This document shows positions 3,855 to 28,248 of a stretch of DNA of 64,000 nucleotides, one piece after another. Source of the DNA: Candidatus Latescibacterota bacterium (GTDB lineage: Bacteria > Latescibacterota > UBA2968); NCBI GenBank assembly GCA_965204375.1, contig OZ241986.1, forward strand, positions 4,448,001 through 4,512,000. Direction: 5' to 3'. Made by a program: the position numbers and the translations under genes. A model generated the notes under the pieces. That model did not search any database. It was not told where the DNA came from and worked only from the letters and a program-made list of their open reading frames with translations. Within the stretch, counting starts at the first letter, position 1. Each line of letters opens with the position of its first letter.

Positions 3855-5201
3855 ATGGCTATAACAGAAAGATTACCCTGGAGAATCGCCGATCCCATAC
3901 ATCTGCTAAAAGAGAAGATCGCCTCGCACGAAGCGCAGGTGGCAGTGATGGGATTGGGATATGTGGGATTGCCTTTATCTGTGGCATTGGGTAAGGTGGG
4001 ATTTTCCGTCACGGGAATCGATACATCGGCGCGCAAAGTAGAGCTAATAGAATCGGGAAAGTCCGATGTGCAGGGTGTATCGGAATTTGAGGTGACAAGT
4101 CTTAAAACTGTGGGGAAATTGACAGCGACTCGAGAATGCGATGTGCTCAATGAGGCCGATGTGGTGGTGGTATGTGTGCCCACACCCTTGAATAAAGCAC
4201 GCGACCCAGACGTCTCATTTATACAACAAGCATGTGATGCAATCAAAGACCGACTGCACTGCGGACAACTGGTGATTCTGGAGAGCACGACATATCCAGG
4301 TACGACTCATGAACTGGTATTGCCCCTTCTCGAAGAAAGTGGCTTGAAGGTTGGACGAGATTTTTTTCTGGCATTTTCCCCAGAGCGCGTCGATCCGGGC
4401 AACAGGGTTTATACCATCACCAACACGCCCAAAGTCGTGGGTGGTATTACCCCGTCTTGCACAAAAATAGGCACGCATTTTTACCGACAATCGATCGGCG
4501 AAGTCGTACCGGTCTCATCGACCCAGGCAGCAGAAATGACCAAGTTGCTGGAAAATACTTTTCGCAGTGTAAATATCGGCCTTGTCAATGAAGTGGCCCT
4601 GATGTGTGACCGCCTGGGGGTGGATGTTTGGGAAGTAATCGATGCCGCAGCGACCAAGCCGTTTGGATTTATGCCGTTTTATCCCGGTCCTGGGTTGGGC
4701 GGGCATTGCATCCCGGTTGATCCTCACTTTCTGGCCTGGAAGCTCAAGACCTTGAATTACAATGCGCGCTTTATCGAATTGGCCAGCGAAGTGACGCGTA
4801 GCATGCCGGGCTATGTGGTCGAAAAAATCACCGACGCACTCAACGAATACGAGCGGTGTTTGAAAGGCTCGAACATCCTGATATTGGGCGTGACGTATAA
4901 ACCCGATGTACGCGATATTCGCGAGTCTCCGGCATTGGATATTATAGAAATGCTTCAGGAGAAAGGGGTGAAGGTCTCGTATTGCGATCCGTTTGTAGAT
5001 CACTTGCAGACAGAAAGCCTGGACTTGAAGAGCATTACTTTAAATAAAAAAAATACAACTGAAGCCCATTGTGTGGTGATAGTGACACATCACAGCAATT
5101 GGGATTATGAATGGATAGTAAGGCACGCGCGTTGTATTGTCGATACGCGCAATGCCACGCAGGCTGTATCTGGCAAGAAAGATCACGTTTTTAAATTATA
5201 G
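3855..5201 (+). CDS. UDP-N-acetylhexosamine 6-dehydrogenase (WbpA/WecC-type nucleotide sugar dehydrogenase)
   Basis: GLGYVGLP, CVPTP, ESTTYPGTT, FSPERVDPGN, KLLENTFR, GPGLGGHCIPVDP, DIRESP. Confidence 0.93.
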   Translation: MAITERLPWRIADPIHLLKEKIASHEAQVAVMGLGYVGLPLSVALGKVGFSVTGIDTSARKVELIESGKSDVQGVSEFEVTSLKTVGKLTATRECDVLNEADVVVVCVPTPLNKARDPDVSFIQQACDAIKDRLHCGQLVILESTTYPGTTHELVLPLLEESGLKVGRDFFLAFSPERVDPGNRVYTITNTPKVVGGITPSCTKIGTHFYRQSIGEVVPVSSTQAAEMTKLLENTFRSVNIGLVNEVALMCDRLGVDVWEVIDAAATKPFGFMPFYPGPGLGGHCIPVDPHFLAWKLKTLNYNARFIELASEVTRSMPGYVVEKITDALNEYERCLKGSNILILGVTYKPDVRDIRESPALDIIEMLQEKGVKVSYCDPFVDHLQTESLDLKSITLNKKNTTEAHCVVIVTHHSNWDYEWIVRHARCIVDTRNATQAVSGKKDHVFKL

Positions 5202-5279: not shown

Positions 5280-5327
5280 TGAAAAGAGCGAGTCCTTTTT
5301 GGCTCGTTCTTTTTTTAATTTAAAATG
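5280..5327 (+). terminator. Terminator half of the repeated terminator-promoter module
   Basis: AAAAGAGCGAGTC-CTTTTT-GGCTCGTTCTTTTTTT..AAAATGC, same as the 5' half of the copies at 21172, 22207, 23226 and 24757. Confidence 0.8.
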
Positions 5328-5405
5328 CCTATTCATCATCATTGCAAGTGTGCCGCAATGTTGTTTAAGATGCGTGGAAATCCTGGTGATCACGACCTCA
5401 TTCAC

Positions 5406-5641: not shown

Positions 5642-7924
5642 ATGGCAGCCAAACAAAATGAATCGTATGTATGTCCTCCCAAGTGCGAGTCGTTTAATAT
5701 TCCAGAGGATATCATGGATGAGGAGATTAAAATCATATGCAAGAGGCGAAAAAATGTCCAAACCGAGTCCCCCAATTCTGATGAACAAAAAGCCAAAGAA
5801 CCAGAACTCAGGAAAAATCTCGTCGGTCTGGCACTCTCGGGAGGGGGTATCCGGTCAGCGACTTTCTCACTGGGGGTTCTGCAAAGACTCGCCAAAGAGG
5901 ATTGCCTCAAACATGTGGATTACCTCTCGACGGTTTCTGGAGGCGGATACATCGGAGGTGCTTTGACATGGCTCCTCAGCGACAAAGTCAGGAGTCCAAA
6001 AAACGGCAGAGATTTCAGGACCACCAGTGACAAATTTCCTTACGGCGTTGAGGCCCCTCGAGAAGAGCAGCTACGCGAGAACGAGTCCAATATTCTCAAG
6101 CATCTGCGCCTGCACGGCAAATACCTCATGCCCGGCAAGGGAATCACGACAACATCGCTAATCGCCGTGATTCTCCGGGGCATCCTTCTCAATCTTTTGG
6201 TGTGGCTACCGCTGGTGGTCTTGCTTATGGTTGTGCTCATGTTCGTGTCGTGCGCTATTTGGTATATAGGGAGTTTCGGTGAGGCGACCAGCAGTTGGGA
6301 GGCTATATGGAGTGCTATCAAAGAGACCTGCTTGGCATGCATCGCTAAGAACGAGAGGGGACTTAATTTACTACTTTACCCCGCGGGACTCATGGGGGGC
6401 GTGTTCCTACTTGTCAGTATTCTTTATTCACTGTCCACTCGGAAACCCATTCTCAAAGACCCATACCTGAGACGACGAAAATTTGAGGAGTGGATCCGGT
6501 GGGTACTGTGGATAGGTCTGGGGCTCCTCGTGGTAGGATCTCTTCCAGTCGTGGAAAGATGGCTGGGTGACTACCTGGAGGAAGTCGGTGTCGCGTCAGT
6601 CTTGCTCGCTATCGTTAGTGGGGTGTTGGCTTTCCGCTCGGATAGCAATGGCAAAGGAAAGATTCCCCTCGGCGTTCTCGCACCGCTTGCGTCCATTCCG
6701 TTTTTCTATGGACTGGCGTTAGCGTCGTATAAGCTGGCCTTGTTGTACTTGGGGGCTGACCCTACCTGGATCAAATGGGTGCTCTTGGGAGGTAGTGTAT
6801 TCATCCCGCTCTTGACAGGTTGGTGTGTGAATCTCAACTACATCTCGATCCACCGCTACTATCGGGACCGTCTCATGGAAGCTTTCATGCCCTGCCCGAA
6901 TACGGACGGAAAACCCGCTGCAGCAATAAAAGCCGACAAAGCGAAACTGAGTGACATGTGGAGTAAGCACGCGCCTTATCATCTGGTGAATACCAATGTG
7001 ATACTGGTGGACTCGGACGATTCCAGATGGCGGGTGAGGGGTGGAGATGCTTTTCTTTTATCGCCAAAATATTGCGGTAGCACAGCGACGGGTTGGAGAA
7101 AAACCGCCTGTTATATGAAGAAAGACTCCCTTACCCTGGCGACAGCAGTAGCCATATCTGGGGCTGCTGCCAATCCGAACACAGGTGCCGGAGGCTCAGG
7201 ACCTACAAGAAAACCTTTGTTGTCCCTACTGATGTCCTTGCTGAACGTACGCCTCGGTTATTGGGTCCCACATCCCAACCCTGAAAAATCCAAGTTCCGA
7301 ATAGTCGCAAATCACTTTCGCGCTGCCTACCACGAACTAAGTCCGCGCGGCTACACAGAACACCAGAAGTTGCTTCAAATTAGTGACGGCGGTCATTTTG
7401 AAAACCTGGGTGTATATGAGTTGGTGCGCCGCAAAGTGAAACTAATCATCTGTTGCGATGGCAGCGCTGATCCCGAGTTTAGTTTTTCAGATTTGCAAGT
7501 TCTGGTGCGCCGGATCGGCACTGACTTCGGAGCAAAAATCAAATTTGACAGCAACAACTATCTGGAACGCATCATTCCCCGTGATCCCGATCCCCAAAAG
7601 GTCATCGACCGACATCCGAACACCGACGCTTATCCCGTAGGTGTCAAGTTTGCGGAACGAGGCTATATCAAGGGCAAGATTATCTACCGGGACGGGTCCA
7701 AGAGTACGCTGATCCTGCTCAAAACAACAATGATCAAGGGCCTTGGCATACGGCTCAAAGGCTACAAAGGCGCACATCCTGATTTTCCCGATCAGAGCAC
7801 TGCCGACCAGTTCTTTGATGAAGAACAGTTTGAGGCATACCGAAAACTGGGTTACGAGATTGCAAAGAGAATGATCAACGACCCATGGGTAGGTCTTCAG
7901 AGACTGCTGGATGAATGTAGATAG
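5642..7924 (+). CDS. Patatin/cPLA2-like phospholipase with an inserted multi-TM region
   Basis: GLALSGGGIRSA oxyanion motif, STVSGG catalytic Ser, SDGGHFENLG catalytic Asp, about 6 hydrophobic helices in between. Confidence 0.85.
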   Translation: MAAKQNESYVCPPKCESFNIPEDIMDEEIKIICKRRKNVQTESPNSDEQKAKEPELRKNLVGLALSGGGIRSATFSLGVLQRLAKEDCLKHVDYLSTVSGGGYIGGALTWLLSDKVRSPKNGRDFRTTSDKFPYGVEAPREEQLRENESNILKHLRLHGKYLMPGKGITTTSLIAVILRGILLNLLVWLPLVVLLMVVLMFVSCAIWYIGSFGEATSSWEAIWSAIKETCLACIAKNERGLNLLLYPAGLMGGVFLLVSILYSLSTRKPILKDPYLRRRKFEEWIRWVLWIGLGLLVVGSLPVVERWLGDYLEEVGVASVLLAIVSGVLAFRSDSNGKGKIPLGVLAPLASIPFFYGLALASYKLALLYLGADPTWIKWVLLGGSVFIPLLTGWCVNLNYISIHRYYRDRLMEAFMPCPNTDGKPAAAIKADKAKLSDMWSKHAPYHLVNTNVILVDSDDSRWRVRGGDAFLLSPKYCGSTATGWRKTACYMKKDSLTLATAVAISGAAANPNTGAGGSGPTRKPLLSLLMSLLNVRLGYWVPHPNPEKSKFRIVANHFRAAYHELSPRGYTEHQKLLQISDGGHFENLGVYELVRRKVKLIICCDGSADPEFSFSDLQVLVRRIGTDFGAKIKFDSNNYLERIIPRDPDPQKVIDRHPNTDAYPVGVKFAERGYIKGKIIYRDGSKSTLILLKTTMIKGLGIRLKGYKGAHPDFPDQSTADQFFDEEQFEAYRKLGYEIAKRMINDPWVGLQRLLDECR

Positions 7925-9576: not shown

Positions 9577-9649
9577 AATTGACAGGCTATATTCCTTTTC
9601 TCAATCACAATAGTATTCGTCGTCACACTGTCATTGGGATATAGCACAC

Positions 9650-9691
9650 AATACGGTTCGTTGACACTCCTTTGGCTTTGGGCTATATTGC
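9650..9691 (+). promoter_or_regulatory. Promoter half of the repeated module (sigma70-type)
   Basis: TTGACA 9661-9666, 17-nt spacer, TATATT 9684-9689; near-identical to 22285-22325. Confidence 0.85.
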
Positions 9692-9724
9692 AAAATAAGA
9701 AGTGTGAATTGGAAGATTTAAGTC

Positions 9725-9967
9725 ATGAATACTTATCGCAGGCGTCTTGTAGTCCAAGACCCCAAACAGATTGTGCTTTCTGATGTTCCTTTTCAAACAG
9801 GTCAAGAAGTGGAAATTACCCTGCGTTCAGTAGAGCAGCCCACAGTAGAGCGGAAGAATGAGTTACGCGCTCTGTTTAAGAAGACGCAATCACTTCCTCA
9901 GATTCAAACCCTCACAGAAGAGGATATTCTTGCTGAGATTGAAGCCTATCGGATTCGTATCAGCTAA
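9725..9967 (+). CDS. Small AbrB-like/antitoxin-like protein (paralogue of 22359-22598)
   Basis: IVLSDVPFQTGQEVEITL hairpin plus TEEDILAEIEAYR tail typical of antitoxin-like proteins; near-identical duplicate. Confidence 0.6.
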   Translation: MNTYRRRLVVQDPKQIVLSDVPFQTGQEVEITLRSVEQPTVERKNELRALFKKTQSLPQIQTLTEEDILAEIEAYRIRIS

Positions 9968-10032: not shown

Positions 10033-10347
10033 ATGCTGGACCAATCAACATTGGACGACATCATCCGGCGCATTGTAGAGGTCGCTCATCCGGAGAAGAT
10101 CATTCTCTTTGGGTCCGCCGCGAGGGACGACCTGAACCGCCATAGCGACGTTGACCTGCTCGTCGTAAAGGACGACAGTGATCCGTGGGCTGTTATGGGA
10201 GACATCTACGGGAATCTGCGCGGCGTTGGTGTGGCAGTCGATGCAATCGTGGTCACGCCAGCGCAGATGGAACGTTACAAGGATAGTCACGCACTGGTGA
10301 TCAAGCCCGCACTGCGGGAGGGAAGAGTCATATATGAAGCCGCCTGA
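10033..10347 (+). CDS. Minimal nucleotidyltransferase (MNT) antitoxin
   Basis: IILFGSAARDD..HSDVDLLVV, VDAIV, ALREGRVIYE. Confidence 0.9.
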   Translation: MLDQSTLDDIIRRIVEVAHPEKIILFGSAARDDLNRHSDVDLLVVKDDSDPWAVMGDIYGNLRGVGVAVDAIVVTPAQMERYKDSHALVIKPALREGRVIYEAA

Positions 10348-19057: not shown

Positions 19058-19711
19058 ATGAGATACTTTATGGGTATTCTGATATTAGCGGTCCTGTTCT
19101 ATCCCGCCTCGATTCTTGGACAACCGACACTCTCTATTAGGGAGGGCCTGAATCTGGCAACCTTGAGCGGAGAGATAATGGATAGGCATCCAGTGAATGC
19201 ACGCGCCACCCTCAAGATGGGTGTTTCCGGGACTTTTCCAGTACGGGGCAGATTTGGCTTTCAACTCAATGGTGACTATGTGCAAAAGGGTGCTCATGAC
19301 TTCTTATACGATTTCATCATAGAAGTTGACTATATTGAGTTTTCTGGGCTAGTCAATATCACACTTATCTCCCCCTATCGTGCCCCTTCTTTATTTATAC
19401 TCGCAGGGCCATCAGTGGCATTCAAAGTTAGGAGCGAGGGCGAACAGTTAGCGAGAAGACACTGGAGAGACCGCTTCGAGTTCAAGACCACAGACTTTGG
19501 TATCATTGTAGGACTTGGCACGCAAATGACATTTTCTGAAGCGATGATACTCAAGGCAGAATTGCTATACACCGAGGGCATCCAATCTATTAACAAAACC
19601 ATTTTCGATGATCCCAACTATAGAATGGGAAAAGCCAATAGTATTAGAAACCGAGCGCTCTCCGTCTGTGTCGGATTCGGTTTTCCTTATGGGCGAAGAA
19701 CGGGAGGTTAA
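19058..19711 (+). CDS. Porin-family / outer-membrane beta-barrel protein
   Basis: Signal peptide, GLNLA, YVQKG, AGPSVAF, DFGIIVGLG, NRALSVCVGF pattern. Confidence 0.8.
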   Translation: MRYFMGILILAVLFYPASILGQPTLSIREGLNLATLSGEIMDRHPVNARATLKMGVSGTFPVRGRFGFQLNGDYVQKGAHDFLYDFIIEVDYIEFSGLVNITLISPYRAPSLFILAGPSVAFKVRSEGEQLARRHWRDRFEFKTTDFGIIVGLGTQMTFSEAMILKAELLYTEGIQSINKTIFDDPNYRMGKANSIRNRALSVCVGFGFPYGRRTGG

Positions 19712-19712
19712 A

Positions 19713-21107
19713 ATGGACTCTGTCATGTCAACATGTATTCGCATGATCATCGTGGTAGCAATAGCTACTGGTGTGATGGAGAGCACTGGATGGGCACAGG
19801 AGATTGAGCCGGCTGTGACTTCATTTGTGATAGGCGGCGTGACACTCCAGGAAGATGTGAAGAATCCCCCCGTGCCGAGTGGCATGCAGAGATTTGAAAT
19901 TACAATGAATAAACCAGTCGTAACTTTTAACGAATTGAGGGAACCTGAAACTTTGCCCTATTTCGATGGCGACAGCATTGCTATAGCAACTATCACTAAG
20001 TACTTTGATATTGACCGAGATTTTATTTCCTATCCTCCTGATCTGATTGTAGAAGTTCTAACTGCTCCTGACCTATCAGCCAGTGCGGATGGCTTTACAT
20101 TAACAGGGACTATCAATTTGCCTGACAGTATGAGCTACCAGGTACTTATTGGTGAGTCGGATCCAGACCCTATTGATGAACAGCAGCAATATTTCTTTGG
20201 GACTTCAGAACTGCCAGATGCTGTTATTTCCGGTGTAGGCACCTTACCTGATGGTTTTACAGTCAACACGCGGTCACACCCAGGCGGAGCCATAATTATT
20301 GACCCTGAACGATTTGTGACGGCTTTCCCATACTACCAAGAATGGGATGATCTGATCATATTATCTATGGTTCGCATTGCCGATTTCAATGAACAACAGA
20401 TGTTTGAGATAAAACATGTCCCTGATGGCGCTTATGCAATGATAATGGGAGCGGATCTGCTCGATTCAGTGGGAAATAGGTTTCAGTCACTTACTCCCAG
20501 AGGAATCAATCTTACGACAGGTGAGGTCGATTCTACCGAATTTGTTCATGTCATTGGTGGCAAAAGTGTAACAGATTTACAAATGATGTTACAGATAGTA
20601 CCGCGGGATCCAGAGCCACAGATTTCTGAAATTCTGGAGGTCAGGGTTCAAAGCGTCAATGCTGAAACAAAATCTTTTGTCATTCAACCTGGCAACCAAC
20701 AGATACAGATAGATGCTTCAGAGGCCCTGGCAGTTTCCCCAGACCAAATAAGTGCTGAGGAGATACTCAAGATCTTTTTGTTCAATTCTGATGATTTCGC
20801 ACGAATCATTTTTCCTATTACCGACCTGATGGTAGGAGATACCGTTTCTCTCCTGGGAACATACACTTCTAAAACGATGTTCCAGGCCTTTATAGTAATC
20901 CGCCATGAATCGCCTCTGGCACGGAATGGAGATATAGATGGGGACGGAGATGTCGATTTCTCTGATTTTATACTTTTTACTTCTGCCTTCGGCACAATTG
21001 AAGGGGGAATAGGATACAATCCCGCAGCAGATTTGGACGGGGATGGTGCGGTCGTCTTCTCAGACTTTCTGATATTTGCCAGTGCCTTTGGCAAGCCCGT
21101 GGGTTAG
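19713..21107 (+). CDS. Secreted protein with a C-terminal dockerin/EF-hand-like double repeat
   Basis: Signal peptide; GDIDGDGDVDFSDFILFTSAFG...ADLDGDGAVVFSDFLIFASAFGK. Confidence 0.8.
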   Translation: MDSVMSTCIRMIIVVAIATGVMESTGWAQEIEPAVTSFVIGGVTLQEDVKNPPVPSGMQRFEITMNKPVVTFNELREPETLPYFDGDSIAIATITKYFDIDRDFISYPPDLIVEVLTAPDLSASADGFTLTGTINLPDSMSYQVLIGESDPDPIDEQQQYFFGTSELPDAVISGVGTLPDGFTVNTRSHPGGAIIIDPERFVTAFPYYQEWDDLIILSMVRIADFNEQQMFEIKHVPDGAYAMIMGADLLDSVGNRFQSLTPRGINLTTGEVDSTEFVHVIGGKSVTDLQMMLQIVPRDPEPQISEILEVRVQSVNAETKSFVIQPGNQQIQIDASEALAVSPDQISAEEILKIFLFNSDDFARIIFPITDLMVGDTVSLLGTYTSKTMFQAFIVIRHESPLARNGDIDGDGDVDFSDFILFTSAFGTIEGGIGYNPAADLDGDGAVVFSDFLIFASAFGKPVG

Positions 21108-21128
21108 GCGTATGGTATGACACACCAT

Positions 21129-21161
21129 AAACAGCCCAGAGGCTGCCCCCCGGGCTGTTTT
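21129..21161 (+). terminator. Intrinsic terminator
   Basis: AAACAGCCC..GGGCTGTTTT. Confidence 0.65.
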
Positions 21162-21171
21162 CTATTTCTCT

Positions 21172-21291
21172 AAAATGAAAAGATCGAGTCCTTTTTAGCT
21201 CGCTCTTTTTTTGCTAAAATGCTTCATTGTGCTACGCGGGGCATAATTTAATACGGCTCGTTGACACCCTTTTGAATTTGGGCTATATTGC
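21172..21291 (+). repeat. Terminator-palindrome-promoter module, copy 1
   Basis: Hairpin plus T-tract, ATTGTGC..GCATAAT core, TTGACA 21261 / TATATT 21284. Confidence 0.92.
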
Positions 21292-21336
21292 TTGAAATGA
21301 TCAAGATCACCTGAAAATCAGTTCTGGAGTTTAATA

Positions 21337-21717
21337 ATGGCAACATTTACTGTTGATGAATTGGTCAAAGCTGCTGAGAAATTGCCTCAAATAGATTTGG
21401 AAAATTTGACAGCGCAGGTACTTACTCTCAAGGCAAGACGCGCAGCACCAGAGTTGTCAAAAAATGAAGCCAAGTTGCTCCGGAATATCAACCGGGGAAT
21501 GCCCGATGCGTTACAGAATCGATATCGGGAACTCATCGCTGGCAGACGCGCAGAAACACTGACTGAATCCGAACATGCCGAATTGCTTCATCTGACAAAT
21601 CAGGTTGAAAAACATGATACAGAACGACTGAAATATCTTACCGAACTTGCACGTATTCGAAAAATTTCTCTGACCGACCTTTTGGATGAACTCGGCATTG
21701 AACCAGCCTATAAATAA
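21337..21717 (+). CDS. Putative antitoxin partner of the HNH nuclease
   Basis: EAKLLRNIN..RYREL..LTESEHAELL..RLKYLTELARIR pattern, 3 bp upstream of the HNH gene. Confidence 0.7.
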   Translation: MATFTVDELVKAAEKLPQIDLENLTAQVLTLKARRAAPELSKNEAKLLRNINRGMPDALQNRYRELIAGRRAETLTESEHAELLHLTNQVEKHDTERLKYLTELARIRKISLTDLLDELGIEPAYK

Positions 21718-21720
21718 ACT

Positions 21721-22149
21721 GTGAATGCAAGACTGAAACAAGCCGTTATTCATCGTGCTCAGGGATGTTGTGAATACTGTCAGAGCCAGGCTCGTTTTGC
21801 AACCCACCCATTCTCTATTGAGCATATTCATCCACTTAGCCAAGGTGGCGAAGATACGCTCAATAATTTGGCTCTGGCTTGCCAGGGATGTAACAACTAC
21901 AAATACACCAAAGTCGAGGCACTTGATCCCGTCAATGGTCAGCCTGTTCCACTCTTTCATCCAAGACAGCAATATTGGACAGATCATTTTAGATGGGCGG
22001 ATGGCTTCACTCACATTGTAGGAATTACGCCAACAGGTCGTGCAACTGTAGAGGCTTTACAACTAAACCGTAGAGGTCTTGTAAACTTGCGTCGAATCCT
22101 ATTTTCCGTAGGTGTACACCCTCCATCAAATTCTAACCGCAATGAATAA
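21721..22149 (+). CDS. HNH endonuclease (TA-type)
   Basis: RAQGCCEYC, IEHIHP..GG..NLALACQGCNNYK, LFHPR..W.DHF.W, TPTGRATV.ALQLN. Confidence 0.92.
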   Translation: MNARLKQAVIHRAQGCCEYCQSQARFATHPFSIEHIHPLSQGGEDTLNNLALACQGCNNYKYTKVEALDPVNGQPVPLFHPRQQYWTDHFRWADGFTHIVGITPTGRATVEALQLNRRGLVNLRRILFSVGVHPPSNSNRNE

Positions 22150-22206
22150 ATCTCCATAACTTCAAAGATCGGATTGGCAAACACAAAAAGCCCTCACATT
22201 TGAACT

Positions 22207-22325
22207 AAAATGAAAAAAGCGAGTCATTTCTGGCTCGCTCTTTTTGCTTAAAATGATTCATTGTGCTGCGCGGAGCATAATTCAAGACGGCTCGTTGACA
22301 CTCCTTTGGCTTTGGGCTATATTGC
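22207..22325 (+). repeat. Terminator-palindrome-promoter module, copy 2
   Basis: TTGACA 22295 / TATATT 22318. Confidence 0.92.
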
Positions 22326-22358
22326 AAAATAAGAAGTGTGAATTGGAGGATTTAAGTC

Positions 22359-22598
22359 ATGAATACTTATCGCAGGCGTCTTGTAGTCCAAGACCCCAAA
22401 CAGATTGTGCTTTCTGATGTTCCTTTTCAAACAGGTCAAGAAGTGGAAATTACCCTGCGTTCAATAGAGCAACCCACAGTAGAGCAGAAGAATGAGTTAC
22501 GCGCCCTGTTGAAGAAGACGCAATCACTTCCTCAGATTCAAACCATTACAGAAGAGGATATTTTTGCTGAGATTGAAGCCTATCGGAAAGGCCAATGA
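22359..22598 (+). CDS. Small antitoxin-like protein (duplicate of 9725-9967)
   Basis: Near-identical protein and upstream DNA. Confidence 0.65.
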   Translation: MNTYRRRLVVQDPKQIVLSDVPFQTGQEVEITLRSIEQPTVEQKNELRALLKKTQSLPQIQTITEEDIFAEIEAYRKGQ

Positions 22599-22987
22599 AA
22601 GTTGTCAGGGACGCTATGATGACACAGGAACAAAATGAGAAAGTCCAGACCATTGTCCGCGAGACCCTTGCGGAACGCTTCTCGTCGGACGAGTTCGTGT
22701 TCGACCCCATTGTGGTGGTACCGACTGTTGATGAATACGGTTCTGACGCCAGCGGCGAAACGTATCTTAGTATCATTATTGTCTTTGAGGGCGATCAGAA
22801 GCAACTCGACTCCAGTTGGACATCCAGCTTCATCAGACGCATTCGCCCGAAGCTGATTGAGGCAGGCATAGAAGAGTTCCCCAGTCCGTCATGGGTTGAG
22901 AAATTTGAGTGGTGGAGTCTGTATCCCAAATGGCGACAACAACACCCAGAGGTAACTATTGAAACCGCCCGTTACATTGGAGTCTAA
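22595..22987 (+). CDS. Hypothetical protein (duplicate of 24924-25295; likely start 22617)
   Basis: Near-identical paralogue, with mostly synonymous or conservative differences by eye. Confidence 0.7.
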   Translation: MKVVRDAMMTQEQNEKVQTIVRETLAERFSSDEFVFDPIVVVPTVDEYGSDASGETYLSIIIVFEGDQKQLDSSWTSSFIRRIRPKLIEAGIEEFPSPSWVEKFEWWSLYPKWRQQHPEVTIETARYIGV

Positions 22988-22992
22988 GCGAT

Positions 22993-23196
22993 ATGGACAA
23001 TGGAAATTATCGAGGCAGGATTGCGGTTGATCCCCAAATTCATTTTGGTAAGCCTTGTGTGGCAGGAACGCGGATTCCCGTAGTTGATGTTCTCGAATTG
23101 GTGCGTGAGGGAATTGCGTTTAAGACGATCCTCCCTGATTATTTTCCCAACCTTCAAGAAGACGACATTCGCGCTTGCATTCATTATGCGCTCTGA
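22993..23196 (+). pseudogene. DUF433 antitoxin, C-terminally truncated copy lacking the PIN partner
   Basis: IAVDPQIHFGKPCVAGTRIPV; similarity to 25301-25546 stops at 23190. Confidence 0.8.
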
Positions 23197-23225
23197 ACCT
23201 TGAAAACTGACTGAAACCTTGAACT

Positions 23226-23345
23226 AAATGAAAAGAGCGAGTCTTTTTTGACTCGCTCTTTTTTGCTTAAAATGCTTCGTTGTGCTGCGCGAGACATAAT
23301 GTTAATACAGTTCGTTGACACCCTTTGGGATTTGGGCTATATTGC
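23226..23345 (+). repeat. Terminator-palindrome-promoter module, copy 3
   Basis: Perfect stem GAGCGAGTC/GACTCGCTC; TTGACA 23315 / TATATT 23338. Confidence 0.92.
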
Positions 23346-23401
23346 ACAAAAGGTCACTATAATTATTCGAAATACGACCTTAGAGGAGAATAATCCAGAG
23401 A

Positions 23402-24358
23402 ATGAATACGCATAATTGGACATTTATTGATTTGTTTGCTGGCATTGGCGGGATGCGTATTCCGTTTGAAGACTTAGGTGGCACCTGTGTGTTTAGTTCT
23501 GAGTGGGACGAACCTGCTCAACAGACCTATTATCACAACTTTGGCGAAATGCCAGTGGGCGACATTACGCAAATTGAGGAAGATACGCTTCCGAAACACG
23601 ATATTTTATTGGCTGGGTTCCCTTGCCAACCGTTTAGTATTATCGGCAACAAACAGGGGTTTGAAGATACGCGAGGCACGTTGTTCTTTGATATAGAACG
23701 GATTTTAAGAGCAAAGCAACCACAGGCATTTCTTCTTGAAAATGTGAGGCAGTTGGTGAGCCACGATAGTGGAAGAACCTTTCGGGTGATATGCGAACAT
23801 CTTCAAGAACTGGGGTACACTATATACCATAAAATTTTGAACGCTCTCGATTTTGGAGTGCCTCAAAAGAGAGAACGGATTTTTATTGTCGGATTTCGGG
23901 AACCCATCGCATTCACTTTTCCGACCGGTAACGGGTATTATAAGCCCCTATCAGAGATTATCGAGCCAGATAGCGAAGTAGATCCAAGTTTGTTTGCATC
24001 GGAGAGAATCCGAAAATCGCGTTTTGAAAAATGCAAAATTGAGCCGTTTTATCCCTCTATCTGGCATGAGAATAAAGGTGGTAATATATCAGTATTGCCG
24101 TTTTCATGTGCTTTGCGAGCCGGGGCATCTTATAACTATCTTCTGGTCAATGGCATTCGTCGCCTTTCAGGGCGAGAACTCTTGCGGCTACAAGGTTTCC
24201 CCGAAGATTTTAAGATTGTCGTAAATATCACACAACTTCGGAAGCAGACCGGAAATAGTGTGGCAATTCCAGTAATTCGCGCTATTGCAGAGCAAATGCA
24301 GGAAGCCCTAATACAACGGAACCGCGCAGAACTTATTTTGGCGTCGCTATTCAAATAA
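23402..24358 (+). CDS. C5-cytosine DNA methyltransferase (probably M.HaeII-like)
   Basis: FIDLFAGIGG, GFPCQPFS, ENV, QKRERIFIVG, RLQGFP, GNSV motifs I-X. Confidence 0.95.
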   Translation: MNTHNWTFIDLFAGIGGMRIPFEDLGGTCVFSSEWDEPAQQTYYHNFGEMPVGDITQIEEDTLPKHDILLAGFPCQPFSIIGNKQGFEDTRGTLFFDIERILRAKQPQAFLLENVRQLVSHDSGRTFRVICEHLQELGYTIYHKILNALDFGVPQKRERIFIVGFREPIAFTFPTGNGYYKPLSEIIEPDSEVDPSLFASERIRKSRFEKCKIEPFYPSIWHENKGGNISVLPFSCALRAGASYNYLLVNGIRRLSGRELLRLQGFPEDFKIVVNITQLRKQTGNSVAIPVIRAIAEQMQEALIQRNRAELILASLFK

Positions 24359-24702
24359 AGCATTTATCCCTGACGCCCGAAATGGCAGACGATATCTCTA
24401 ATAACATTTCAGCCGATAGAATCATCATTGTTTGCAAAGCGTGCGAGAAAGACGTTCTAATTTCGGTATTGCGACAATTTGGTGGTGCGAACAGAATTCA
24501 AAGCGTAATAACAGAAGATGAGCTTGATGTATGGTACGAAAAAGCCTTACAGGGAAAATCGGCAATACTAATAGGCGACAAAGTCCTGCAAAGATTGGAG
24601 AACGAAATCACTGTTGAATTTCCTTCCACGGTCGAGTTTGATAAATTTTTCAAGTCGCGGAGCTACCATCAGTTGCCAATTCGCGATATCTGGCGCGATT
24701 GA
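24337..24702 (+). pseudogene. C-terminal remnant of a HaeII-family restriction endonuclease
   Basis: In-frame FGVAIQIKHLSLTPEMADDISNNISADRIIIVCK...IQSVITEDEL..WYEKAL.GK...EFPS recalls the RE_HaeII C-terminus; N-terminus missing, remnant begins inside the last MTase codons. Confidence 0.7.
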
Positions 24703-24756
24703 ACCTTTGTTGCCAGACCATTTCGCGACCGTCCTATGTGACCTCGGGAATCACTG

Positions 24757-24874
24757 AAATGAAAAGAGCGAGTCCTTTTTGGCTCGCTCTTTTTTATTGA
24801 AATACTTCATTGTGCTGCGCGGGGCATAATTTAATACGGCTCGTTGACACCCTTTTCGATTTGGGCTATATTGC
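24757..24874 (+). repeat. Terminator-palindrome-promoter module, copy 4
   Basis: TTGACA 24844 / TATATT 24867. Confidence 0.92.
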
Positions 24875-24923
24875 ACAAAATATCATCCGCAGAAGAAGGA
24901 TCCTATACATTGACGGAGACGCT

Positions 24924-25295
24924 ATGATGACACAGGAACAAAATGAGAAGATCCAGACCATTGTCCGCGAGACTATTGAGGAACGTTTCTCGTCGGATGA
25001 GTTCGTGTTCGACCCCATTGTGGTGGTACCGACTGTTGATGAATACGGTTCTGACGCCAGCGGTGAAACGTATCTTAGCATCATTATTGTCTTTGAGGGC
25101 GATCAGAAGCAACTCGACTCCAGTTGGACATCCAGCTTCATCAGACGCATTCGCCCGAAGCTGATTGAGGCAGGCATAGAAGAGTTCCCCAGTCCGTCAT
25201 GGGTCGAAAAATCTGAGTGGTGGAGTCTGTATCCCAAATGGCGGCACCAACACCCAGAGGTAAACATTGAAACTACTCGTTACATTGGAGCTTAA
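24924..25295 (+). CDS. Hypothetical protein (paralogue of 22595-22987)
   Basis: GGAG RBS before ATG 24924; the ORF extension to 24810 merely reads through the repeat. Confidence 0.7.
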   Translation: MMTQEQNEKIQTIVRETIEERFSSDEFVFDPIVVVPTVDEYGSDASGETYLSIIIVFEGDQKQLDSSWTSSFIRRIRPKLIEAGIEEFPSPSWVEKSEWWSLYPKWRHQHPEVNIETTRYIGA

Positions 25296-25300
25296 GCGAT

Positions 25301-25546
25301 ATGGAAAATGGAAATTATCGAGGTAGAATTGCGGTTGATCCCCAGATTCATTTTGGTAAGCCTTGTGTTGCAGGAACCCGAATCCCCGTCGTTGATGTTC
25401 TCGAATTGGTGCGTGAGGGAATCTCGTTTAAGACGATCCTCTCTGATTATTTTCCCGACCTTCAAGAAGACGACATTCGCGCTTGCATTCATTATGCGAT
25501 TAACTTAGTGCAGGTCGAAGATATTCATATTTCAGAGGCGAGATGA
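25301..25546 (+). CDS. DUF433 antitoxin
   Basis: DPQIHFGKPCVAGTRIPV, YFPDL.EDDIRACI.YA. Confidence 0.9.
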   Translation: MENGNYRGRIAVDPQIHFGKPCVAGTRIPVVDVLELVREGISFKTILSDYFPDLQEDDIRACIHYAINLVQVEDIHISEAR

Positions 25547-25911
25547 GGTTATTTCTCGATCACGATGTCTATGCAATTACAACGCAATTTCTCAAAGATC
25601 TTGGGCATGATGTAGTGACTGCGAGTGAATCGGGACATGCACAAACTGACGATAGTGAGTTGTTGCGTATTGCGCGTAATGATGACAGGCTTCTGGTAAC
25701 CCGAGATCGAGATTTTGGTCGTCTTGTGTTTGTTTTCCGCGCAGGTTCAGGTGTCATATATCTACGGCTTAATCCCACAAATCTATCTGTGGTTCACGAG
25801 GAATTGAAACGCGTTTTAGAAACGTACTCTGAATCAGAACTCAAAGAAGCATTTGTCGTGGTCGAGACAGGACGACATCGTTTTCGCAATGTTGCTGGAT
25901 TTGGGGATTGA
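25543..25911 (+). CDS. DUF5615/Mut7-C-type PIN toxin
   Basis: MRLFLDHDV, LGHDV, DDSELL..A...RLLVTRDRDFG; ATGA overlap with DUF433. Confidence 0.9.
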   Translation: MRLFLDHDVYAITTQFLKDLGHDVVTASESGHAQTDDSELLRIARNDDRLLVTRDRDFGRLVFVFRAGSGVIYLRLNPTNLSVVHEELKRVLETYSESELKEAFVVVETGRHRFRNVAGFGD

Positions 25912-25951
25912 CTGAAATTGTCCCGTTACGCGATATGTCGGAAGAAATTCA

Positions 25952-25977
25952 AAAGCCCCCACATTATGCGGGGGCTT
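25952..25977. terminator. Hairpin terminator between convergent genes
   Basis: AAGCCCCC-ACATTATGC-GGGGGCTT. Confidence 0.6.
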
Positions 25978-26006
25978 GTAGATTACTGCATCATATCCTT
26001 TAGCAA

Positions 26007-26507
26007 CTACTGAGCCTTTATTGGCAATATAAGTTGCATCCTGAATGTGGTGCTTTTGTCTTCAACGCTAAGATCAGTGCGAATTTTGGGATTGTCTTTA
26101 TTTCTGATTGATATATTGCAAGGGGTTGAAAATATCACCTGTCGGTGGGCTTGTTGGTTGATCTCAACGAGACCGGGAAAAATATTAATCACTGCGCGTT
26201 GATTAATCTCGCGAACACGGTCAAAGGAACCATACTCGCTTATGACGCCCTCAGCCAGGCCACCCACTCGCCTACAGGTCTCGACAGCGGATTTCACAGA
26301 GGAATATTGCTGATTAACAGTAAATTTGACAAACTTTTGATCATTTTCAAACCTTGCAAGAGCGTCCAAACCCCACAACTTCCCTTTATAGCTCCCCTTA
26401 TCTGGTCCCACTTCTACTTTTTTCCATGTTTCTTCTGCTCGGATGGATGACGTATGCAAAGTCACCCAAAAGAAACATAGTGTTGCTAAAATCACACTGG
26501 CCCTCAT
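26007..26507 (-). CDS. Secreted hypothetical protein
   Basis: MRASVILATLCFFWV..SIRA signal peptide after GAGG RBS; the longer ORF overlaps nadE. Confidence 0.65.
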   Translation of the reverse strand: MRASVILATLCFFWVTLHTSSIRAEETWKKVEVGPDKGSYKGKLWGLDALARFENDQKFVKFTVNQQYSSVKSAVETCRRVGGLAEGVISEYGSFDRVREINQRAVINIFPGLVEINQQAHRQVIFSTPCNISIRNKDNPKIRTDLSVEDKSTTFRMQLILPIKAQ

Positions 26508-26520
26508 AGCATCCTCGCAC

Positions 26521-28248
26521 CTAATATTCCCTGCACCGATTCGTAATCGGCAAGCGCCTATCGCGACCGAAAGCGCGGGGCGTAATCTTGATACCCGGAG
26601 GTGCCTGACGGCGTTTGTACTCGTTGATATCCACCGTGCGGATAACCCGGGTAACGAGTTCCTCGTCATAGCCCAGCGCGATAATATCTTGCAAACTGGC
26701 ATCGTCCTCCACATACGCTTTGAGAATGGGATCCAGCACCGGATAAGGAGGCAAACTATCCGTATCTTTCTGGTCATCGCGCAACTCAGCCGTGGGCGGT
26801 CGCTCAATAATCGAAACGGGAATAACGGGATGATCCGACAGACCATTGCGATAATGCGCCAGATCATAAACAACCGTCTTGTAAATATCCTTAATAACCG
26901 CAAACCCACCCGCCATATCGCCGTAAAGCGTGGCATAACCCATACTCAGTTCGCTTTTATTCCCCGGCGCCAGCACGAGCGCACGGAACTTATTGGCAAG
27001 CGCCATCAGCAAAGTACCCCGAATGCGCGGCTGGATATTCTCCTCCGCAGTATCAGAAGGCAAATCGCCAAACTCATCCGCAAGAAGACCGAGATACTGG
27101 TCGAACAACTTTTGAATCGGCAACGTCAGAATGCGAATATCGAGATTACCCGCCATCTGCAGGGCATCGTTAAACGTGCCCTCTGAAGAGAACTGGGTAG
27201 GCATCGTCACACACACCACATTCTCTCTCCCCAGCGCATCATAGGCAACAGCCGTGACAAGTGCCGAGTCAATCCCACCAGACAACCCGATAAAAACCTT
27301 CTCAAACCCATTCTTCACAACATAATCGCGCGTACCCAGAACAAGCGCATCGTAAATATTCTCGAGACGCTCATCTGGACGCGGAAAATCGGGGCTCTCA
27401 GACGGAGAAAGACAGACAGCTTTGGGTTTCAGATCGGGCAAATCAATGGCAGTCGGAGCAGAAACATCGCGCTTCTCCTTGCGCCGACGCGAATCGTGCA
27501 GGCGATTGCGAAAAACAGCCTCAACATCAACATCCGCCACCAGCAAATCTTCCTCAAACCGGGGTGCCCGCGCAACAACGCGCCCTTCCTGATCAACGAT
27601 CAAGCTGCCTCCATCAAAAATCAACTCATCCTGCCCGCCGACGAGATTGCAAAAAGCCAGAACAGCACTATTATCAGTCGCGCGCGTAGCAATCATCTGC
27701 TCGCGCAACAACTCTTTGCCATCGTGGAAAGGAGAGGAAGAAATATTGATCAGCACCTCGGCATCGCCGGCAAGTGCTTGCTCCCGGGCGGGACCGCCGG
27801 GATACCAGATATCTTCGCAGATTGTAACCCCAAAAGTGATACCATTGAGGCGATACACCCCCGCGGTCTTCCCAGATTGGAAATAGCGGTCTTCGTCAAA
27901 GACGCCGTAATTGGGCAAATAGGTCTTGTGATAAACATCGATCAAGCGCCCATCGCAAGCAACAGCTGCGGCATTGTAGATATCGTCGTGACGATCCACA
28001 AAACCGAAAATCGCAGCAATACCCTGCGTCGCCCGAACGAGTTCATTCAACACATCGAGGTTGGATTGGATAAACCGGGGCTTAAAAAGCAAATCCTCGG
28101 GCGGATAGCCCGGAATCGCGAGTTCGGGAAAAACGACAACATGCGCCCCCAAATCGCGTGCACTGTGAACATGGTCGAGAATTTTATCACGGTTGCCCGC
28201 AAGATCACCGACGGTAACATTGATTTGCGATAGGGCAAGGCGAATCAC
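26521..28248 (-). CDS. nadE: Glutamine-dependent NAD+ synthetase
   Basis: Nitrilase domain (FPEL..GYPPEDL, ICEDIW) plus GLSGGIDS, ENIQPRIRG, NKSE..GYATLYGD, EYKRRQAPPG. Confidence 0.97.
   Translation of the reverse strand: MIRLALSQINVTVGDLAGNRDKILDHVHSARDLGAHVVVFPELAIPGYPPEDLLFKPRFIQSNLDVLNELVRATQGIAAIFGFVDRHDDIYNAAAVACDGRLIDVYHKTYLPNYGVFDEDRYFQSGKTAGVYRLNGITFGVTICEDIWYPGGPAREQALAGDAEVLINISSSPFHDGKELLREQMIATRATDNSAVLAFCNLVGGQDELIFDGGSLIVDQEGRVVARAPRFEEDLLVADVDVEAVFRNRLHDSRRRKEKRDVSAPTAIDLPDLKPKAVCLSPSESPDFPRPDERLENIYDALVLGTRDYVVKNGFEKVFIGLSGGIDSALVTAVAYDALGRENVVCVTMPTQFSSEGTFNDALQMAGNLDIRILTLPIQKLFDQYLGLLADEFGDLPSDTAEENIQPRIRGTLLMALANKFRALVLAPGNKSELSMGYATLYGDMAGGFAVIKDIYKTVVYDLAHYRNGLSDHPVIPVSIIERPPTAELRDDQKDTDSLPPYPVLDPILKAYVEDDASLQDIIALGYDEELVTRVIRTVDINEYKRRQAPPGIKITPRAFGRDRRLPITNRCREY

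Follow-up and report, generated by a model that had tools for sequence, protein, structure and literature searches.

Predicted terminator–promoter modules head toxin–antitoxin and restriction–modification type cassettes in a Latescibacterota chromosome: a possible bacterial counterpart of phage PeSL elements

Introduction

In the hyperplastic regions of T4-type phage genomes, accessory genes are flanked by promoter-early stem-loops (PeSLs), composite elements of ~100 bp in which a sigma-70 promoter is accompanied by an AT-rich tract and a stem-loop terminator; the stem-loop falls into five subclasses placed within or next to the promoter, and homologous recombination between the elements was proposed (Arbiol et al., 2010, PMC2839356). 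The same work reports promoter and terminator activity of PeSLs, mini-circles demonstrated by inverse PCR and the opposition of a solo PeSL to element–gene–element between phages phi1 and RB49 (PMC2839356). PeSL literature found in our search concerns phages or archaeal viruses only. Here, we describe an array of related design in a 64,000-nucleotide (nt) stretch of a Candidatus Latescibacterota bacterium chromosome (GTDB lineage Bacteria; Latescibacterota; UBA2968; assembly GCA_965204375.1, contig OZ241986.1, positions 4,448,001 to 4,512,000 of the forward strand), referred to below as the window and numbered from its first letter. Between a dockerin-like gene and nadE it carries four copies of a non-coding module made of a hairpin, an imperfect palindrome and a predicted promoter, each heading a small operon of toxin–antitoxin (TA) or restriction–modification (RM) type. 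We hold it to be somewhat probable that this array is a bacterial counterpart of the PeSL regulatory cassettes, in which homologous recombination shuffles the units and microhomology deletions wear them down.

Several bacterial systems share particular features with such a layout. TA cassettes are common in the arrays of integrons and of clusters of attC sites lacking an integron-integrase (CALIN), and the present locus resembles them as a one-directional array of small unrelated cassettes that occupies a fixed place in the chromosome and has a repeat of ~125 nt between its units. The pdif modules of Acinetobacter plasmids are small, often TA-encoding and located between short XerC/XerD sites, being shuffled between replicons; they have in common with our locus the rows of small modules at short conserved sites and an array that encodes no recombinase of its own. 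In Neisseria, minimal mobile elements represent alternative cassettes between core genes; they are devoid of mobility genes and are swapped through homologous recombination once DNA has been taken up. Like these and like defence-island hotspots, the site considered here accommodates alternative cassettes between conserved genes, but those systems use core flanks only, whereas here an internal repeated module makes stackable units. Finally, putative mobile promoters are upstream sequences of 50 nt or more that reach at least 80% identity ahead of unrelated genes, both within one genome and between related ones; their mode of spread was left unknown, and arrays are not described in the respective survey (Nijveen, Matus-Garcia and van Passel, 2012, PMC3575422).

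Results

Module Anatomy

Repeat finding, alignment and an nhmmer profile run against the whole 6.34-Mb single-contig genome agree in resolving the array into four direct, co-oriented copies of a ~128-nt non-coding module on the plus strand. Copy 1 spans 21170–21299 (nhmmer E 2.2e-40), copy 2 22205–22333 (E 7.5e-40), copy 3 23225–23353 (E 2.5e-39) and copy 4 24754–24881 (E 4e-41). Pairwise identity amounts to 86–91% over ~125 nt, which, being observed ahead of unrelated genes, places the modules within the definition of mobile promoters, with the difference that here the promoter is joined to a terminator-like hairpin and a palindrome, arrayed at one hotspot and tied to defence or TA cargo. Homology between the copies stops 3–8 nt past the -10 box; beyond this point, leader and ribosome-binding site are specific to each type of cargo.

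The module opens with a ~14-bp hairpin, AAAAGAGCGAGTC-loop-GGCTCGCTCTTTT, preceded by an A-tract and followed by a T-tract (21178–21209, 22213–22244, 23231–23262 and 24762–24793 in copies 1 to 4). Folding is predicted at about -20 kcal/mol for the majority of 18 module copies from the genus, and at -15.6, -22.2 and -20.3 kcal/mol for copies 2, 3 and 4; in copy 1, which reads GATCGAG, the hairpin is weakened to -11.5 kcal/mol. Covariation in the genus copies is limited to one-sided changes of G-U type, with no compensatory pairs. The imperfect palindrome ATTGTGC-N8-GCATAAT (21226–21247, 22260–22281, 23279–23300 and 24809–24830), deviating in both arms in copy 3, passes by its right arm into an AT-rich stretch that extends toward the -35 box, ~50 nt downstream of the hairpin. 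The -35 (21261–21266, 22295–22300, 23315–23320 and 24844–24849) and -10 (21284–21289, 22318–22323, 23338–23343 and 24867–24872) boxes form TTGACA-N17-TATATT in all four copies, with differing bases in the spacer. Thus, every element named in an earlier note on this DNA is present, including the constant hexamers and spacing around variable spacer bases. The four promoters are the top matches (11 of 12 positions) among 23 sigma-70-type candidates between 19000 and 28500; the promoter pattern was matched five times against 0.00 expected, and the palindrome pattern seven times (four plus-strand sites and three reverse-strand readings) against 0.18.

Judged by this composition, the hairpin would act as a bidirectional intrinsic terminator ending the upstream operon and shielding the next one, the AT-rich, partly palindromic tract ~60 nt upstream of the expected start would be UP-element-like or a regulator site, and the last part would be a near-consensus sigma-70 promoter. 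Such a module in front of each TA or RM operon would make it an autonomous, insulated transcription unit, and it is in this sense that we infer the insulator-plus-expression role formulated in the earlier note. Two candidates of another kind were rejected: a small protein encoded on the minus strand of the module (open reading frames (ORFs) of 40–45 amino acids (aa)), absent from copy 1 and confronted with T-tracts varying by 1–2 nt in length, and a known RNA family, to which no match came close, since the six obtained from Rfam (E up to 1) score far below the gathering thresholds.

Possible, although rather unlikely in our estimation, is that the module serves as a shared regulatory element only, perhaps uniting a regulon under a palindrome-binding factor, and has no role in mobility, the locus being an ordinary accessory-gene hotspot with turnover via flank recombination and illegitimate deletions. 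Its repetition would then reflect the use of one conserved terminator and one genus-wide promoter by several TA/RM operons. Variation confined to few columns, with the -35 box and the arms of hairpin and palindrome being least variable, is what functional constraint predicts. A purely regulatory role leaves unexplained why module 1 has a hairpin at all, since the dockerin-like gene upstream possesses its own terminator-like hairpin (CAGCCC...GGGCTG followed by a T-run; 21131..21163, plus strand, read from the sequence), which makes that of the module redundant. The palindrome arms are also more conserved than the 3′ half of the palindrome spacer, a feature compatible with a protein site and with an UP-like tract, but not decisive.

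It is very improbable that the module is a miniature inverted-repeat transposable element (MITE) of Correia- or REPIN-like type inserted four times with an outward promoter. Its length of ~128 nt and repetition would suit such an element, and MITE-type repeats (Correia, ERIC and REPIN are cited) can carry promoters and terminators (PMC3575422). Nevertheless, the inverted repeats found in the module are internal hairpins and none is terminal, no target duplications were found at module/cassette junctions, and full copies keep one locus and one orientation. Moreover, the left flanks of the modules fall into three groups of extended homology that follow the upstream gene, which is at variance with independent insertions.

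Cassette Genes and Their Losses

Every module heads a TA- or RM-type operon, since a toxin or nuclease domain accompanied by a small upstream gene or a methyltransferase (MTase) was found here and in relatives; the view that modules delimit self-contained operons of these types is thereby supported. All cassette genes are encoded on the plus strand. The first cassette begins with A126 (21337..21717, 126 aa, no named family), which leads an HNH gene both here and at genome position 2.63 Mb, and continues with a 142-aa HNH endonuclease (21721..22149; Pfam HNH 6.4e-13, HNH_5 8.6e-12), whose similarity to a PtuB-like protein of PADLOC (9.8e-17) is limited to the HNH domain. A126 has no match in Pfam, NCBIfam or PADLOC and only "hypothetical" clusters in the ESM Atlas, so that its previous designation as antitoxin found no support there; the antitoxin role of A126, as of the 79-aa and MMTQ genes described below, is putative and assumed from gene position.

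The second cassette starts with an antitoxin-like gene of 79 aa (22359..22598), whose PIN_3 partner is deleted. In relative G010 this gene is followed by a PIN_3 gene (Pfam 1.3e-18), in G020 by its homologue (assigned by homology, not by domain scan), and the ~407 nt carrying it in both genomes are missing here: homology to G020 breaks at 22602–22607 and resumes within the MMTQ gene. The product is an ORF of 130 aa (22595..22987), fusing the stub of the PIN start to the MMTQ protein and giving no family match in Pfam, NCBIfam or PADLOC and only "hypothetical" ESM Atlas clusters. It is followed by a DUF433 gene shortened to 67 aa (22993..23196; Pfam 5.5e-20), inside which homology to cassette 4 ends at 23190, and the DUF5615 gene that would come next is lacking.

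Cassette 3 encodes a C5 cytosine DNA methyltransferase of 318 aa (23402..24358; Pfam DNA_methylase 8.4e-95, TIGR00675 2.9e-97), which by its preserved domain appears intact and is now an orphan, since of the HaeII-type restriction endonuclease (REase) only the C-terminal 106 aa remain (24382..24702; Pfam RE_HaeII 1.6e-25, model positions 243–338 of 338). The enzyme is intact in G018 (352 aa, 7.4e-134), and in comparison with G018, G006 and G020 ~739 nt are lost; in the last cassette of G020, the REase is broken at a different point. Cassette 4 consists of MMTQ (24924..25295, 123 aa; sharing 300 nt at 95% identity with its counterpart in cassette 2), without a family match in Pfam or NCBIfam and with "hypothetical" ESM Atlas clusters only, a full-length DUF433 gene of 81 aa (25301..25546; Pfam 1.2e-21) and a putative toxin of 122 aa with a PIN-like or Mut7-C-like DUF5615 domain (25543..25911; Pfam DUF5615 4.6e-22, also Mut7-C 2.5e-05, and PIN_10 5.3e-05, which is below the PIN_10 cut-off).

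Domain scans thus bear out the HNH, DUF433 (two copies), C5-MTase (8e-95), REase remnant and PIN-like DUF5615 assignments made earlier. The statement that each unit carries different cargo holds for the first genes, A126, the 79-aa gene, the MTase and MMTQ forming separate sequence clusters, and fails for the cassettes as a whole, since a stretch of 589 nt is common to cassettes 2 and 4 (93.7% identity). Cassettes 1 and 4 are apparently intact, while 2 and 3 have lost the toxic partner. Many junctions are microhomology deletions, by which two toxin genes and most of the REase have been removed here.

Partners of the leading genes vary: the 79-aa gene is followed by PIN_3 in some genomes and by an MNT-type nucleotidyltransferase in others, in some relatives A126 precedes DUF433 and not HNH (contigs of sequencing runs X18 and X4, where 21582–21711 is joined to 25277–25471 or 22970–23100), and MMTQ in relatives precedes a 158-aa or a 966-aa gene. 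This swapping of partners by A126, the 79-aa gene and MMTQ suggests mosaicism within cassettes too. The 966-aa protein of G020 (L026:353-3253, after MMTQ and the 158-aa gene) shows weak similarity to N6-MTases and type II MTases and may be a fused restriction–modification enzyme; its truncated copy is found in G016 (L027:17134-18750). The array of G016 ends in an N-terminally truncated TnpB (OrfB_IS605 and TNB domains) and a fragment of a DDE (IS5-type) transposase (L027:19025-19783 and L028:301-873).

The Site in Related Genomes

Module DNA was matched in all 20 other genomes of the genus, in none of four genomes from other genera of the family and, weakly, in one of 16 genomes from a second family. 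The nadE gene is present and syntenic in 21 of 21 genus genomes, and its neighbourhood was read in 20 of them, the contig of the remaining one ending at nadE. At least a partial module resides at the dockerin-like gene/nadE site in 14 of the 20; the six genomes without it include the four most divergent ones (G001, G017, G011 and G019) along with G014 and G009. Cargo is present at eight of the 14 sites, and six hold a module only (G015, G007, G012, G003, G008 and G004). Cassette number varies from 0 to 4 or more, and their order is variable as well: the first module is followed by A126-HNH in G000 and G016, by a 79/86-aa gene in G010 and G006, and by MTase-REase in G018 and G020, the last of which bears a long mosaic array, whereas G002 and G005 have other layouts and the array of G010 ends in an MMTQ gene stub. 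Content and order of cassettes, whose identity would have refuted the earlier note, thus differ between relatives.

Two junctions recur. G005, G012, G015 and G007 have a common right-hand junction inside the -10 box, and with this same right end a solo module in G015 and G007 is opposed to module-A126-HNH-module in G005. Another right junction is common to G018 and G004 and falls within the promoter spacer, where a few consecutive bases are identical. Solo-module and module–cargo–module states at one junction are not anticipated for a purely regulatory module, while the fact that several junctions are microhomology deletions speaks for that reading.

In comparison with G020, the most distant array-bearing relative, cargo is 94.9–96.6% identical, the dead REase fragment included, against 87.9–90.7% for nadE, ppiD and orfS (a small gene next to nadE); in comparison with G006 the values are 93.0–96.1% for cargo against 90.6–92.8% for flanks, and no excess of cargo identity was found in the comparison with G016. 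Cargo being closer than core flanks points to cassette transfer between species after their divergence. The modules themselves were compared as alleles, with neighbour labels assigned by hand and two rows (a truncated duplicate and a divergent copy) dropped. The nearest allele resides in another genome for 15 of 18 copies, sharing the upstream neighbour in only four and the downstream cargo in only two of the 18; such shuffling relative to both neighbours again disagrees with a regulatory role alone. Only the promoter segment tracks the downstream cargo (identity of 0.914 versus 0.866, none of 2000 permutations being as high, with a contribution of the "empty" class). Thus, the idea of exchangeable cassettes is partly sustained by their variable content and order, while the site-specific crossover point, recombinase or Xer site it might have implied was not found.

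Module Parts Outside the Array

In this genome the full module occurs in the array only, and the full linker of hairpin plus palindrome was found at this locus only, both here and in the stretches read in relatives, a confinement hardly expected from a generally used regulatory element. A metagenome scan for the linker returned six contigs, only two of them with a real module, in both cases followed by the 79-aa gene. Partial copies lie beyond the span given in the earlier note: the promoter half recurs at five further genomic sites and the hairpin half at two. Within the window, a promoter half (module positions 79–130; 9648..9699, plus strand, nhmmer E 6.7e-11) precedes a paralogue of the 79-aa gene (9725–9967; from module position ~80 on, 305 nt agree with cassette 2 at 96.4%) and an MNT nucleotidyltransferase gene (10033–10347; Pfam NTP_transf_2), and a hairpin half (positions 7–55; 5280..5330, plus strand, E 2.2e-07) follows a UDP-glucose dehydrogenase gene (3855–5201, Pfam). 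Judging from this placement, the hairpin alone serves as a putative ordinary terminator of ordinary genes. Directly after this solo hairpin, 13 kb upstream of the array, lies the gene of a 760-aa protein with a patatin-like phospholipase domain (5642–7924), possibly an effector of defence type.

In paralogues of cassettes 1 and 2 located elsewhere in the genome, homology sets in at module position ~80, immediately before the -35 box; hence promoter and cargo behave together as a unit, and hairpin plus palindrome as a linker. This contradicts the notion of one portable unit proposed in the earlier note, as do the hairpin-only copies and the half-copies breaking at several positions. The 3′ ends of cassettes are not uniform, and homology of the cassette 1 paralogue breaks off within the sequence that was once the terminator of the HNH gene, 12 nt short of the next module. 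RNA-mediated mobility, which would leave transcript-shaped copies, was rejected because the paralogues share the untranscribed promoter and not the hairpin.

A degenerate promoter pattern gave 35 matches in 32 loci of species-representative genomes and nine more in this genome; being derived from the copies themselves, it is no measure of constraint. Behind 42 of these 44 matches an ORF is present, and the first ORFs fall into 16 unrelated clusters, A126 accounting for 11 of the 42, so that copies ahead of unrelated cargo, foreseen earlier, are indeed widespread. Promoter cores thus stand at other loci ahead of other families, some housekeeping-like, which, together with the hairpin ending the UDP-glucose dehydrogenase gene, speaks for a regulatory element without mobility. 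Thirty of the 32 loci belong to Latescibacterota; the two single matches in a Zixiibacteriota (L047:4565-4595) and a Thermodesulfobacteriota (L055:6499-6529) metagenome-assembled genome (MAG) are probably due to chance, since their spacers differ.

Other remnants accompany the half-copies. At 3,815,500–3,816,170 of the genome (minus strand) a decayed locus combines a promoter half, a remnant of the A126 3′ end and an MMTQ paralogue (83–85% nt identity). In relatives, a second repeat with a GC-rich hairpin (ATCGCGGC...GCCGCGAT) lies directly 3′ of three hairpin-half modules (L025:6014-6080, L025:14155-14220 and L027:6450-6520), with a weak counterpart in the present genome at ~4,706,220–4,706,270, outside the window.

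Searches for Dedicated Machinery

Inverted arms around an 8-nt spacer resemble the simple core site of a tyrosine recombinase, and site-specific recombination at the 7-N8-7 palindrome, performed by an unrecognised or host-encoded enzyme in an integron- or pdif-like manner with a new type of site, would account for the arms being more conserved than the 3′ half of the spacer, for promoter-plus-cargo units starting directly after the right arm and for several half-modules ending or beginning near the palindrome (positions 56–60, 64–65 and 78–80). We consider it improbable. The full set of half-module breaks, at positions 42, 53, 56–60, 64–65, 73, 78–80 and 106, is spread over more than 25 nt and adjoins other repeat contexts, and therefore reveals no single crossover point; cassette 3′ ends are non-uniform, and copy 3 is altered in both arms.

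The enzymatic side is equally unsupportive. No integron integrase was found in the whole genome: TIGR02249 matched four stretches in two genes with a best score of 88.6 bits against the cut-off of 265 bits, and similar sub-threshold matches occur in all 14 control genomes. The sole tyrosine recombinases matched are two Xer-like genes far from the array. Pairs of attC R″ (RYYYAAC) and R′ (GTTRRRY) cores spaced by 40–130 nt are absent from both strands of 21000–26100, and the modules fold as separate local hairpins without an attC-type end-to-end fold. The earlier observation that neither integrase nor attC is visible is thus confirmed, and an integron was rejected: there is no IntI, attC or attI, each cassette has its own promoter instead of a common Pc, and cassette ends are uneven.

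For comparison with Xer sites, in which XerC- and XerD-binding arms enclose a spacer of ~6 nt, a dif core motif other than a curated one was used. It pointed to a dif-like site outside the window, at position 1,714,758 of the genome, which probably is the chromosome terminus site and is situated 4.7 kb from the maximum of cumulative GC skew (1.71 Mb; minimum at 5.18 Mb). The module agrees with its left arm at 7 of 11 positions and with the right arm at 1 of 11 (counted by eye). A Xer/pdif site was rejected because the module lacks this right, XerD-type, arm; unlike pdif sites, its repeats are direct, not alternating, and the array is chromosomal.

Flanking Genes

The flanks are chromosomal core genes, namely nadE, a ppiD-like gene and a MacB-type permease. 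On the left, the array is bordered by the gene of a dockerin-like secreted protein (19608..21107, plus strand, start codon uncertain), in which Pfam Dockerin_1 matches residues 441–489 with 21.7 bits, below the cut-off of 22.9 bits; its orthologues adjoin the first module with aa identity of 89–94% in G010, G018 and G015 and 93% in G007. The right boundary of the variable site is the terminator-like hairpin of a convergent small gene (25953..25977, minus strand; 11 pairs, 7 of them G-C, in the terminator scan), kept in G006 and G020 and deleted in G018, G004 and G015. This gene, orfS (26007..26510, minus strand, 167 aa, downstream of nadE), has no Pfam match and lies beside the array in relatives with 79–95% aa identity. 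The listed 309-aa ORF at 26007–26936 (minus strand) overlaps the nadE 3′ end by ~400 nt, but only its last 167 codons (26007–26510) are conserved in relatives, starting with a hydrophobic stretch. In G016 the DDE transposase fragment stands in place of the small ORF beside nadE. Next comes nadE itself, encoding glutamine-dependent NAD+ synthetase (26521..28248, minus strand; Pfam NAD_synthase 2.1e-68 and CN_hydrolase 1.9e-34). A tRNA-anchored island was rejected, as there is no tRNA between 15000 and 32000 of the window.

Assembly and Transcripts

Repeats break short-read contigs, and the MAG has an estimated contamination of 5.5%, so that an assembly artefact had to be weighed. It is hardly credible: the four copies differ by 9–14%, similarly built arrays occupy this locus in eight further species, and contigs of the best-matching DNA run (X1) bridge most junctions with zero differences (the dockerin-like gene to module 1, HNH to module 2, module 2 to the 79-aa gene, and the truncated DUF433 gene through module 3, MTase and REase remnant to module 4). 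The latter agreement is not independent support, since X1 may be the MAG's own source. Contigs and similar arrays in relatives together back the assembly against the suspicion of mis-assembly raised beforehand. Parts of the locus were also recovered from other runs, whose labels name sponge, coral or marine metagenomes; joints at modules are numerous there, which is what relatives would produce.

In two metatranscriptome runs, which come from two studies, contigs extend over 21290–22169 and 21305–22193, approximately from the -10 box to the cassette 1 terminator. However, the same libraries yield contigs across presumably silent sequence (from 23230 onward, and 56 nt upstream of 21297), and they are therefore a weak hint of transcription at most; repeats interrupt contigs, and none of the listed DNA contigs spans the point at which the transcript contigs start. 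One RNA-run contig represents the empty-site form of a relative.

Discussion

The closest described relatives of the array are the PeSLs. As in these, a predicted promoter of sigma-70 consensus has AT-rich sequence ahead of its -35 box; it is accompanied by a stable hairpin with a T-run, a candidate terminator, and the elements reside in a variable region with small accessory genes, relatives showing solo-element as opposed to element–cargo–element states. Recurring in direct orientation, the module offers portable homology. RecA-type recombination between modules, within the chromosome or with DNA of related species and assisted by conserved flanking genes, would either delete cassettes, with a solo module remaining, or lead to their insertion and reordering. 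The promoter half would belong to the cargo unit and have spread to many genes of the genus as a putative mobile promoter, and microhomology deletions would then erode the array with a tendency to remove the toxic partner.

A number of observations weigh against this PeSL-like reading. The host is a bacterial chromosome of Latescibacterota, not a phage, and the stem-loop, ~50 nt upstream of the -35 box, falls outside the five PeSL subclasses. Efficient RecA-dependent exchange in E. coli requires a minimum of ~25 nt of identity. Since the longest identical tracts between the ~86% similar copies of this genome are 15–39 nt, longer ones being confined to the pairs of copies 1 and 4 (39 nt) and 3 and 4 (23 nt), homologous exchange appears marginal in efficiency. 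Copies within one genome are 85.6% alike versus 85.5% between genomes, so concerted evolution is not seen; this lack of homogenisation and the shortness of identical tracts fit a shared regulatory element. The hairpin segment does not track the upstream neighbour, in a comparison of low power that included one wrong upstream label, corrected for the analysis of nearest alleles. Contigs of X1 contain no alternative joints, although contigs hide rare variants. Finally, many junctions are plain microhomology deletions or truncations, so that ordinary illegitimate events explain part of the pattern. Further distinctions concern scale: cargo consists of TA or RM operons of one to three genes instead of single ORFans, full copies are confined to one locus, and, while circles as well as promoter and terminator activity are documented for PeSLs, those of the present module are predicted from sequence.

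A more far-reaching possibility, which we put forward tentatively and with more doubt than confidence, is that bacteria use terminator–promoter cassettes for recombinase-free gene capture, a cassette leaving as a circle with one chimeric module and re-entering at any module. If so, integron-like stacking and between-species exchange of defence genes would proceed by general recombination alone; in a bolder form, the 7-N8-7 palindrome may be the site of a recombinase still to be discovered.

If the array is indeed a counterpart of PeSL cassettes, it would extend from phages to a bacterial chromosome the principle by which a control element both expresses accessory genes and supplies the homology for their shuffling, and would offer an integrase-free explanation for integron-like arrays lacking integron hallmarks. 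For a phylum without a cultured model, the modules are a source of candidate strong promoter and terminator parts. The locus also represents a natural series of TA and RM decay, in which antitoxin-like genes and an orphan methyltransferase are left, and thereby bears on the erosion of defence islands.

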